Below are positions 30,001-33,000 of a DNA stretch of 64,000 nt, piece by piece; the first letter of the stretch is position 1; each line of letters starts with the position of its first letter. The DNA is taken from IMG/VR virus record IMGVR_UViG_3300029922_000007, positions 32,001-96,000 of that record. The stretch is one strand, 5' to 3'. This DNA comes from a virus. Position numbers: made by a program.

Positions 30001-33000
30001 AGTCTGGGGAAGGCCTTATTCGTTACGTCCGTTTGAAAAAGAGTTGACTCCTTTTGATCTCAATGGTATTCTATTTTTGTGGTGGACGAGTTGGTCAAGC
30101 GTTTAGCGGCGCACGTAGGTTCGATTCCTACAATTAGGCGGGTAGCCTTAAAGGGGTTCGATTCCCATGGTCCACCACATTTTTAAGGAGAATCTATGGA
30201 ATTTCAGGAATTTGCAAGTATCGAGATCTTAGAGTCGTTAGTAACTATCAGTGAAAAAATTCATGGCACCAATGCGCAAATTGCGATCAACGATTCTGGT
30301 ACAGAAATGTACGTAGGATCTCGTACTCGATGGATTACTCCAGAAGACGACAACTATGGATTCGCTTCTTGGGCCTATGCAAATAAAGACACCCTGATCG
30401 CGCTTCTTGGGCCAGGCAGGCATTTTGGAGAATGGTATGGGGCAGGTATTGGCCCTGGATATGGACTTAAGGAAAAACGTTTTGCTCTATTCAACACCCA
30501 TCGTTGGACTAAGCCTAAACAGGATGGATTGCTTCTCCCTCGAATGGATGTAGTTCCAGTTCTGTATAGCGGCATTTTTACCCCAACGGTCGTTAAAGAA
30601 ACCCAAGATAAGCTCAAAAAGGAAGGATCTTCCTTGGTTCCTGGTTTTATGCGCCCAGAAGGTATTGTAATGTACTTCTCACGCACTCAGACATATTTCA
30701 AGCAGGTCTTCGATAAAGAAGAAACCGGATGGGATAGGAAAGACAAGAAAGAAAAAGTGGCCACAGATCCAGCTCTAGAAGCAAAAGTGCTGTCTTATCT
30801 TCAACCTGTGCGTCTAGAAAAGCTTATTATGAGGGACGATCGCTATCTCCGAGAGTATCCAAAAACACTGCCAGATATCGCTCGCGACTATGTGGCAGAC
30901 CTAGTTAAAGAATCAGAGCCTATCGATCCAGTAATCTTGGCGGAAGTGAAGAAAAAAGCATTTGTATTTATTAGGGAGACATACGGAAAATGACCGATCT
31001 ACTACTCAAGGCTGTCTTTCAAAAGCAACTTACTCCTGACACTGTTGAGATCCAGTTTTGTTCGGATTGGCTTAAGGATCAAATTACGGATCTCTTCACC
31101 AAGATCTCCCTTATGGAAGAAGAGCTTAAGTGGCGTCGTGGGGTCCATATTGTTACTGGTGTCGATAAGCTTAATGAGCAGCTCAATGCTTATAAGCTCC
31201 TACTGGAAGAAAGTTCCACAGGAAGGATCATCTTATTTGAACAGCTCCAAGAAGCTAAAGACGATGCCCTTAAGTTCGGGAGGGCCATGGAAGAAGAGCG
31301 CAATTTACGACTAGCCTTTCAGGAAGCTTTAGAGAAACTGTCCGTAGTAGACGATACCGGAACTGGCGGCTATATGGAAGACGTTATTGGAACTGCACTT
31401 TCCCTGTTGGAGAAGAGAAATGTCTAGAGAATTTGGATCTTATAGTTCCGGCTATTTTCACCAACAAATCCAAACTTGCGCCCAGGACTGTGCCGGAAGT
31501 AACGATGTTCTTGTTCAGCTTTGGGGTGAATTCCTAGAAGAGTTTTACGATGTAGCTTATTCTATTTCTTCTAGCGAGGCTTGTGATTCCGCCCCATACG
31601 ACCCTATTATGAAGACCATTGAAAAGATGGACGTTCTTCGTACTAAGTTAGACAAAATTAGTATCCACGTAGGGCCATATAGGCGAGTTGCTGAAGAGGC
31701 GGTTCGTGCTCATACTGATAAAAAGAAGAAATGAGTTAGGAATTCTGTCCAGATAAAAATTCAAGGCAACGCCTAATACAACCCTCTTGGTCTGCAATCC
31801 AGTCTTCCTCTTTAATATGGAGGATTTGGATACCAATAGAGGCGAAGTAAGAATCTTTTATTTCGTGGTAGTTGTGAATGTCCTCATCGGGCCAATGAGG
31901 CCTAGAGCGTTTTAATCCTTTGAACGAATGCCAATAAATTCCATCAAACTCTATCCCCCTATTAAGTTCTGGAACAAATATGTCGATCTCAAAACCCTTG
32001 ATATGTAATTTATTGGGTACGAATATTTTGCAGAACCTTCTATGTCTTGCCGTAGGAAAAGATTTCTTAATTATTTTCAACAGGGTCTTTTCCGCTGACG
32101 ACGAACCGTTAGAGGGTTTCATAGCCTTACAAATCTTGCTGAAGAATTCCTCCCCTCTTGATCGCGCGGTTTGATAACAACTAAAGTTTCCTTTTGCGAA
32201 CTCACCGCGAGTTGGGTATCCATTCGCACAATTTTCGATCTTTTCGTCTGTCCATTTGAACCACGCATTGTTCTCCCCAGATCTATCGCACCATTTAGGC
32301 ATGTGGGAGCAGACTTTATCCAAAAAAGCTTCTCCCTTTTTCCATGCTGCATTGTAATGAGAAGGAGAATTCGAGGAAAAGTCGGTGCGCCTGGTATACT
32401 TGTTTGATTCAGATCGAATTTCTTGTTCCGAATAGGCCTCCGACTCTGAAGGGTCCATATGAGAACATATGCGGTCCAAGAACTCCTTGCCTAGGACGCA
32501 AGCGGCCTGATAAGCACCGGAACTACCCTTACGGAAGTGACCTCGCTTCCCGTATTTCTTGGCTTCTTTCGGCAATGTCTGCTCGTTCCAGAGTTTCTTC
32601 ATACTACTAAGATTGTAGCACTTTATAGGAGTATGTAAGGACCAATTCTCCCATAAAATGTAAGGATGGCCCTATGATATAACCCTGTAAGACTACAAGG
32701 AGTTACACTTTATGGCTAAAAAAACAAAGCCCTTTCGAGACAGTCACGATCCAATGTTCAGTACCTTAGCGAAACAGGTCGCGTACAACATCTCCATCTA
32801 TAAAGACGGCAAGAGCAACAAAGAGCACTTTGAGGAGCTAGTAGCCGCTGAGAAGGCTTTTCATGAACATCTCCTTAGCAATACGAAGTTATCTACTGAG
32901 ATCTATAAGCGTTTTATTCAAGAAATTCGCTTAGTTAACAAGAATATCCTGTCCGCTAGACCGTATTTTAGGGAAACAGCGGACAACTTCTCCCTAAATA

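Follow-up and report, generated by a model that had tools for sequence, protein, structure and literature searches.

A tRNA-shaped RNA with two T-arms in the leader of an Rnl2-like RNA ligase gene of a phage

The 64,000-nucleotide stretch of phage DNA analysed here (the window) corresponds to bases 32001–96000 of IMG/VR record IMGVR_UViG_3300029922_000007, a genome with a total length of 166,169 bp that is complete according to CheckV. Between the promoter and the ribosome site of a gene for an Rnl2-like RNA ligase it encodes a tRNA-shaped RNA of about 100 nt (positions 30078–30179) that carries two T-arms. The reading tentatively favoured here is that this element is a selected, non-decoding tRNA mimic with twin elbows, derived from a tRNA and made together with the ligase. 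Judging by its intact helices, its T-loops, its D-loop consensus and its fold z-scores, the element looks remodelled rather than randomly decayed. The stretch that contains it recurs base for base in an independent ENA assembly (L286, 361 bases identical), so the element is not an assembly artefact.

Architecture of the element

The components of the element and the features that frame it are as follows.

Ending at 30047: helicase gene (read from the sequence)
30044..30072, + strand: sigma-70-type promoter TTGACT-17-TATTCT, TG-extended (consensus scan, 9/12 plus TG)
30078..30087, + strand: 5′ strand of the closing, acceptor-like helix, 10 bp (minimum free energy (MFE) and centroid folds)
30088..30098, + strand: D-loop-like single strand G-AGUUGGUCA-A, lacking a D-stem (sequence, and comparison with the canonical D-arms of the relatives L074 and L076)
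30099..30112, + strand: 5-bp hairpin GCGUU-UAGC-GGCGC with a UAGC tetraloop and no anticodon, at the anticodon-arm position (MFE fold)
30115..30131, + strand: T-arm 1, GUAGG-UUCGAUU-CCUAC, five Watson-Crick pairs with a closing G-C (sequence and fold)
30136..30148, + strand: 4-bp hairpin AGGC-GGGUA-GCCU with the look of a mini D-arm (sequence and fold)
30152..30168, + strand: T-arm 2 with loop UUCGAUU, three G-C pairs, one G-A mismatch and one A-U pair (sequence, fold and ARAGORN drawing)
30170..30179, + strand: 3′ strand of the closing helix, with A30177 at the discriminator position and no CCA encoded
30180..30195, + strand: U-rich tract and ligase Shine-Dalgarno sequence UUUUUAAGGAG
30196..30993, + strand: Rnl2-like ATP-dependent RNA ligase, 265 aa (PF09414, 1.2e-13; phrog_548)

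Pairing is complete in the closing helix (10/10), the tetraloop hairpin (5/5, through three Watson-Crick and two G-U pairs), T-arm 1 (5/5) and the GGGUA hairpin (4/4), and both T-loops satisfy U54-U55-C56-R57-A58 with the G53-C61 closing pair. The two T-arms have GGTTCGATTCC in common, which occurs nowhere else in the genome, and its 9-mer core GTTCGATTC is present in two copies in the 166-kb genome, both of them in the T-arms of the element. A single extra base, G30169, separates T-arm 2 from the acceptor-like strand. The tRNA D-loop consensus reads A14 R15 Y16 Y17 G18 G19 .. A21, and the AGUUGGUCA strand fits it, while the halves of the former D-stem are now engaged in other helices. The GG of a second elbow could come from the GGGUA hairpin.

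RNAfold reproduces this module of five helices both alone and within a longer transcript, leaving the ribosome site unpaired in the centroid fold, and the fold energy lies 2.5 standard deviations below that of shuffled sequences (3.5 below with mononucleotide shuffles). The closing helix starts 6–7 nt past the −10 hexamer; because the usual distance from this hexamer to the start site is 5–9 nt, transcription probably begins near G30079. A terminator role for the U-run 3′ of the helix was rejected, as the run belongs to the usual ribosome-site context of the phage (the same UUUU(U)AAGGA precedes several of its other genes) and a terminator scan was negative there. Likewise discarded was a leader peptide, the candidate being a 35-codon GTG open reading frame (ORF) at 30079–30186 that has no ribosome site and a length expected by chance about once in five.

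Much of this architecture had been read correctly in a preliminary description of the locus, whose acceptor-like GGTGGAC (30081–30087) and GTCCACC (30170–30176) followed by A30177, D-loop-like GAGTTGGTCAAG (30088–30099), perfect first T-arm GTAGG-TTCGATT-CCTAC and AGGC-GGGTA-GCCT hairpin are all present as quoted. Its acceptor-like pairing stands, with the length corrected from 7 to 10 bp (30078–30087/30170–30179). The second T-arm does lie at 30152–30168, but it is imperfect owing to the G-A mismatch and the extra G30169, and the claim that an anticodon arm is missing holds for the anticodon loop only, since the 5-bp tetraloop hairpin at that position had been overlooked.

Evidence against a decoding role

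ARAGORN, which had been expected to make no call here, in fact reports a tRNA-Ser(cga) at 30090–30176, taking T-loop 1 as the anticodon loop. Beyond the call itself, the idea of a genuine, decoding tRNA-Ser(CGA) whose body is unusual would draw support from the shape of T-arm 1, a 5-bp stem with a 7-nt loop containing U33 and CGA, and from the long arm that comes next, as in tRNAs of class II. Other findings make this reading very improbable. The acceptor drawn by ARAGORN begins inside the D-loop-like strand, tolerates one U-C mismatch along with two wobble pairs and takes no account of the 10-bp closing helix, and the putative anticodon loop is identical to the element's own T-loop. This reading places U at position 37, where 969 of 997 ARAGORN tRNAs in the phage loci compared (97%) have a purine and the remaining 28/997 do not. 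The discriminator of E. coli tRNA-Ser is G73, against A30177 in the element. A comparison with four real tRNA-Ser(cga) found among the loci points the same way, their loops being NUCGAAA or CUCGAAC as opposed to UUCGAUU, and every ARAGORN call with the loop UUCGAUU turned out to be a twin-T-arm element (L206, L269, the window and its copy L286).

Covariance-based detection agrees with this assessment. Searching the region with Rfam RF00005 (gathering threshold 29 bits) yields nothing at E ≤ 10, and across the whole window all Rfam families stay below their thresholds. The only tRNA match in the genome is its single canonical tRNA, a tRNA-Ile(UAU) located far from the window (G000:3265–3337). 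Regarding the features of a canonical tRNA, no D-stem of 3–4 bp can form and the anticodon-arm position has a 4-nt loop in place of a 7-nt anticodon loop, whereas the 7-bp GGUGGAC/GUCCACC helix together with T-arm 2 is present despite G30169 and the G-A mismatch. The earlier view that this is no ordinary tRNA is thus upheld, and the ARAGORN call is regarded as an artefact.

A further possibility is that the element is a split tRNA, in which a T-arm module acts as a tRNA-shaped intron that is cut out by RNase P and RNase Z, the halves being joined by the ligase. By established enzymology these two nucleases leave 3′-OH and 5′-phosphate ends that an Rnl2-type enzyme can join, and the ligase gene adjoins the element. 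However, neither T-arm is flanked by a helix that could make a mini-tRNA, and a scan of 2574 internal deletions (8–59 nt) yielded the Ser(cga) artefact again and no further tRNA, so that this scheme too can be given hardly any weight. The deletion scan, together with the intron mode of ARAGORN, also ruled out the more general case of a tRNA with a tRNA-shaped intron.

Two observations on anticodon loops in other phage loci belong here. The 'tRNA-Leu(caa)' that ARAGORN reports at L216:5644–5733, with loop UUCAAUU, looks like one more T-loop mistaken for an anticodon loop, which extends the miscall beyond Ser(cga). Separately, the tRNA-Asp(GUC) of seven loci (L205, L212, L227, L238, L244, L247, L270) has a pyrimidine at position 37 (CUGUCUA, UUGUCUA, CUGUCCA), and these may be anticodon-loop variants of the type tied to escape from tRNA nucleases.

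The ligase gene and its upstream site in relatives

The preliminary description had placed the element between a promoter and an Rnl2-like gene, and this setting is confirmed by the TTGACT-17-TATTCT promoter upstream (30044–30072) and the ORF at 30196–30993 downstream. Co-transcription with the ligase is likewise supported, in that the promoter is kept directly upstream of the ligase in relatives. The assignment of the gene is borne out by several lines of evidence. Besides the PF09414 match, a profile built from 30 relatives matches T4 Rnl2 chains 1s68 and 2hvq (1.5e-6), the motif I lysine (K21 in KIHGTN) is invariant across these relatives, and the AlphaFold model (pLDDT 91.6) has T4 Rnl2 as its best Foldseek match (2hvr, 1.8e-8), followed by a nick-sealing ligase of Naegleria. 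Both the phage ligase (helices 192–263 of the model) and T4 Rnl2 (PDB 2hvq, 2hvr) end in an all-helical C-terminal domain. The two proteins differ in size (265 versus 334 aa) and share about 16% identity, and the orientation of their domains differs, giving a full-length rmsd of 16–19 Å. The label 'Rnl2-like' for the 265-aa protein therefore stands, with nick sealing as its predicted activity. The genome has a second ligase, of the Rnl1 type, at about 156 kb. One further gene follows directly.

30990..31427, + strand: 145-aa ORF overlapping the ligase stop codon (ATGA)

A family search with this ORF found no family.

Among relatives of the ligase, the site upstream was compared in the eleven closest for which DNA was examined (61–83% identity), with the following contents.

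L074 (ligase 83% identical): tRNA-like RNA whose D-arm and T-arm are normal and whose anticodon arm is replaced by only 16 nt; RF00005 28 bits
L076 (77%): 97-nt tRNA-like RNA whose anticodon arm is replaced by about 41 irregular bases; no RF00005 match; ARAGORN loop GAGGAUA
L160 (76%): unrelated structured leader
L002, L157, L159, L283, L284, L075 and L161 (61–80%): nothing comparable upstream

In L157, L284 and L160 the ligase is immediately preceded by a promoter of the form TTGAC(T/G)-17-(G)ATATTCT or GAGATCCT. Since relatives keep the promoter next to the ligase, the element amounts to an insertion of about 105 nt separating the −10 hexamer from the ribosome site. Anticodon-defective tRNA-like RNAs occupy this spot in two of the relatives' loci and another structured leader in one, while seven have nothing there. 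The site repeatedly hosts tRNA-shaped RNAs without a usable anticodon, and it appears to be a place where RNA modules are often swapped.

Some details of these loci merit mention. The tRNA-like RNA of L074 (L074:1–100) is truncated by the contig end and shows its acceptor 3′ strand in two nearly identical versions, CTGGCCC and CCGGCCC, 16 nt apart. On the 484-kb contig of L076 an HAD_PNKP gene (2168–2830) is divergent from the ligase, and a lone T-arm-like hairpin, CGAAG-TTCGACT-CTTCA, is found 7 nt past the ligase stop (L076:3817–3833). L160 (1895–2027) keeps the order helicase, promoter, ligase and has at the insertion point a leader of about 100 nt without a T-arm and with a fold z-score of −0.9.

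None of the INPHARED phage records resembles the 3-kb region around the element, the sole match of the element itself in phage records is a 25-nt T-arm stretch in two Stenotrophomonas phages, and a search based on the neighbouring helicase led to one distant IMG/VR locus, which has no ligase.

T-arms near other PF09414 ligases

The pairing of tRNA-like RNAs with RNA ligases, which the preliminary description suggested looking for in other phages, is supported, as it recurs in the PF09414 family. Across 133 non-redundant ligase loci, 15 T-arm hairpins are found on the strand of the ligase and no more than 150 nt from its ORF, compared to 3.8 expected from the remaining flanks (P ~1e-5); 11 loci are involved, and owing to clustered tRNAs the counts are not fully independent. 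Ordinary tRNAs account for 6 of the 11 loci, whereas ARAGORN is silent at L010, L074, L085 and L106 and gives an abnormal tRNA-Ser(gga) at L076. Canonical tRNAs flank the same ligase family in L004, L018, L019, L039, L043 and L103. At L085:960–1075 a short PF09414 ligase is immediately preceded by a tRNA-like RNA in which a D-loop insert of about 35 nt interrupts the canonical D-stem (GCTC/GAGC) and just 19 nt lie between the D-arm and the T-arm.

Twin-T-arm RNAs in other phages

RNAs with two T-arms are not peculiar to this phage. A single strict pattern, two GGTTCGANTCC motifs 15–45 nt apart, sampled this class in IMG/VR and returned at least 120 stretches. In about half of the matches listed an ARAGORN tRNA overlaps the first T-arm and is followed by a mini T-arm module; the others have no tRNA call. 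Such mini modules, seen at L199, L204, L228 and about 50 more loci in many phage tRNA arrays, pair a short acceptor-like helix with a T-arm and follow a canonical tRNA within 15–45 nt; ARAGORN makes no call for them. Closed elements, defined by a 7-bp acceptor with at least six Watson-Crick pairs abutting T-arm 2, make up 24 of the matches listed (23 distinct sequences) and measure about 85–115 nt.

Scored by the same script, the window element behaves like these 24 strict members, with 27 nt from the acceptor 5′ strand to T-arm 1, T motifs 26 nt apart and the acceptor 3′ strand 4 nt past the second motif. By inspection many closed members have two GG-bearing loops (two UAGUGGC loops in L206, mini D-arms in L165 and L185). 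Like the window element, twin-T-arm RNAs of other phages have a helix directly 3′ of T-arm 2, GG loops and no anticodon loop, but they are found mostly in tRNA arrays or alone and not in a gene leader. Sequence similarity between the window element and the other members ends at the T-arms, and MAFFT could not align the 5′ halves. In one family, with the ends UAGUCAGG and CCUGACUA, pairing is kept through two-sided changes at 7 of 24 pairs, indicating that such RNAs are under structural selection. No published description of the class was found in a full-text search of the literature.

The class also shows some connection with the ligase. L165 combines a cleanly folding twin-T-arm RNA (z = −3.6) with, in this order downstream, a 133-aa ORF, a PF09414 ligase and a tRNA-Leu. 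When whole records were considered, PF09414 was present in 7/23 of those with a closed twin-T-arm RNA and in 6/79 tRNA-bearing controls, chosen by a canonical tRNA D-arm (Fisher P = 0.009; P = 0.04 after collapsing related records). A tendency of twin-T-arm RNAs to accompany PF09414 ligases is accordingly suggestive, not conclusive.

A second leader in the phage

When the long leaders that follow promoter-like sites were scanned across the genome, two stood out, those of the ligase and of a locus at window positions 10603–10757. There, a promoter TTTACT-17-TATAGT precedes an 11-bp closing helix around some 100 nt, followed by a ribosome site, and the fold z-score is −4.6 (−5.5 with mononucleotide shuffles). 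The wider region (10603–10790) includes a T-loop-like GGUUCGAAACC and then UUUUAAAAGGA, the ribosome site usual in this phage, a 72-codon ORF and a 255-aa ORF (11098–11865). Elsewhere in the genome, at its left end outside the window (G000:C1:1–290), tandem repeats of about 24 nt contain GTTCGAGCCAGGTGA(C/G)GGCGT.

Possible roles of the element

In the tentatively favoured reading, transcription would start in the first bases of the closing helix, and each T-loop would dock on a GG loop (the D-loop-like strand and the GGGUA hairpin), giving two tRNA-type elbows. The RNA would then be trimmed from the mRNA by the host tRNA 3′-end machinery, or kept as the mRNA 5′ end. A mimic of this kind may engage proteins that read the acceptor, T-arm or elbow and not the anticodon, candidate partners being host tRNA-processing or tRNA-modifying enzymes or tRNA-targeting defence nucleases, and might serve as a decoy, a guide or a sensor. 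It would then take part in the conflict over RNA damage and repair to which the nick-sealing ligase also belongs. The idea that the RNA is itself a ligase substrate, perhaps to be circularised, is not supported. Rnl2-type enzymes seal nicks in duplex RNA and primary transcripts start with a 5′ triphosphate, and the ends of the acceptor-like helix differ from a duplex nick.

Several findings weigh against such a selected mimic. T-arm 2 is imperfect and CCA is not encoded. The nearest relatives of the ligase do not share this exact RNA, and those of 61–80% identity that have no element imply that the ligase does not need it. Apart from the identical L286, no sequence homologue of the element was found by blastn or nhmmer in all loci examined. 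Among the matches listed, a search with the ligase hidden Markov model found a ligase in the examined flank of just one of about 120 twin-T-arm loci (L165). Finally, the enrichment of PF09414 is based on few and partly related records, and at the Pfam curated cut-off it becomes 5/23 versus 6/79 (P = 0.12).

An alternative that is unlikely but deserves serious weight is a purely cis-acting 5′ leader, in which a remodelled tRNA gene was captured as a stable 5′ structure and its tRNA likeness has no role. Such a leader would bury the 5′ end of the mRNA, slowing decay that depends on this end, or would tune translation of the ligase. The short distance from the −10 hexamer to the closing helix, which would leave the 5′ end paired, fits this proposal, as do the unpaired ribosome site, the same layout in the strongly folded leader at 10603–10757, and the interchangeable or absent leaders of the relatives, in keeping with the notion that any stable structure would serve. 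However, a simple hairpin would then suffice, leaving two canonical T-loops and a D-loop consensus unexplained. Nor does it account for the independent presence of tRNA-like, and not arbitrary, structures in three related loci (the window, L074 and L076), and twin-T-arm RNAs elsewhere are mostly not gene leaders. It is also improbable, if not negligibly so, that the element is what is left of a tRNA gene that is decaying or was rearranged, for instance by a partial internal duplication of a T-arm, that has lost its function and that happens to lie where phages commonly keep tRNA genes. The RNA is not kept in the closest ligase relatives, the D-stem is lost, and the defects of T-arm 2 (mismatch and extra base) and the missing CCA could be signs of decay; with canonical tRNAs flanking the ligase family a tRNA remnant is plausible at this site, and an identical 11-mer in both T-arms is what a recent duplication would leave behind. 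Against a relic stand the perfect pairing of the remaining helices, the 10-bp closing helix included, and the perfect T-loop, which would not be reached by drift of an anticodon loop. The architecture is moreover widespread elsewhere, with non-identical T-loops and compensatory changes.

A bolder extension of the favoured mimic reading, and a doubtful one, would unite the twin-elbow RNA with the Rnl2-like ligase as the two parts of a counter-defence cassette, the twin-T-arm RNAs being a widespread and undescribed anti-defence class. The RNA would in that event soak up a host nuclease or a sensor of the tRNA elbow or T-arm, or else recruit or activate the ligase on damaged tRNA.

Significance and comparison with known systems

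Hosts cut tRNA, and phages repair or replace it. We know of no non-decoding tRNA look-alike (Y RNAs, the tmRNA domain, T4 RNAs C and D) with a settled role in a phage, and a literature search found no description of a two-elbow tRNA-shaped RNA within the transcript of a nick-sealing RNA ligase. The element and the wider set of twin-T-arm RNAs offer a testable handle on what such mimics bind, on whether Rnl2-type ligases of phages have an RNA partner, and on whether tRNA finders mislabel the class as tRNA-Ser(CGA) or tRNA-Leu(CAA). Should the element be only a stabilising leader or a relic, its main value would be as an annotation warning.

Among known tRNA-related structures, a tmRNA and a T-box leader were both rejected. 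The tmRNA is contradicted by scores of 10.7–11.8 bits for partial T-arm matches, against gathering thresholds of 47 and 84, and by the lack of a tmRNA call from ARAGORN. A T-box leader finds no Rfam match, and the module folds alone, with the Shine-Dalgarno sequence unpaired in the centroid fold. The stable RNAs C and D of phage T4 (rnaC and rnaD, or species 1 and 2) are small, tRNA-related and non-decoding and lie in a tRNA gene cluster; by description they resemble the element, but unlike it they do not form a ligase leader.

Closer in concept are the Y RNAs of the YrlA type, which occur in bacteria and phages. YrlA genes adjoin RNA-repair genes, as in the Salmonella arrangement rsr-yrlBA-rtcBA. 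The element shares with YrlA the combination of a non-decoding RNA with T and D features and an adjacent RNA-repair gene. The tRNA-like domain of YrlA-type Y RNAs, which carries these features, is itself non-decoding (Chen et al. 2014, PMC4201824), and in M. smegmatis YrlA is cleaved by RNase P and receives CCA (PMC4201824). The order of the modules is different, however: YrlA runs T, acceptor-like stem and D between the strands of the Ro-binding helix (PMC4201824), whereas the phage element runs D-loop, hairpin, T, hairpin and T, has two T-arms and forms its acceptor-like helix from its ends. The YrlA motif GNCGAAN0-1G is absent from the element, the nearest sequence being GACGAG, and no Ro60/TROVE gene (PF05731) was detected in the 166-kb genome, the positive controls from Deinococcus radiodurans and Bacteroides thetaiotaomicron being matched. 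With no TROVE gene, motif or Rfam match, and given the different module order, a Y RNA was rejected. A last parallel is provided by tRNA-mRNA co-transcripts and the mitochondrial 't-elements', in which a tRNA or tRNA-like fold lies directly upstream of a coding region and its processing can set the 5′ end of the mRNA (PMC1920247). In the phage the fold would stand at the very start of transcription, so that only the 3′ cut would matter.

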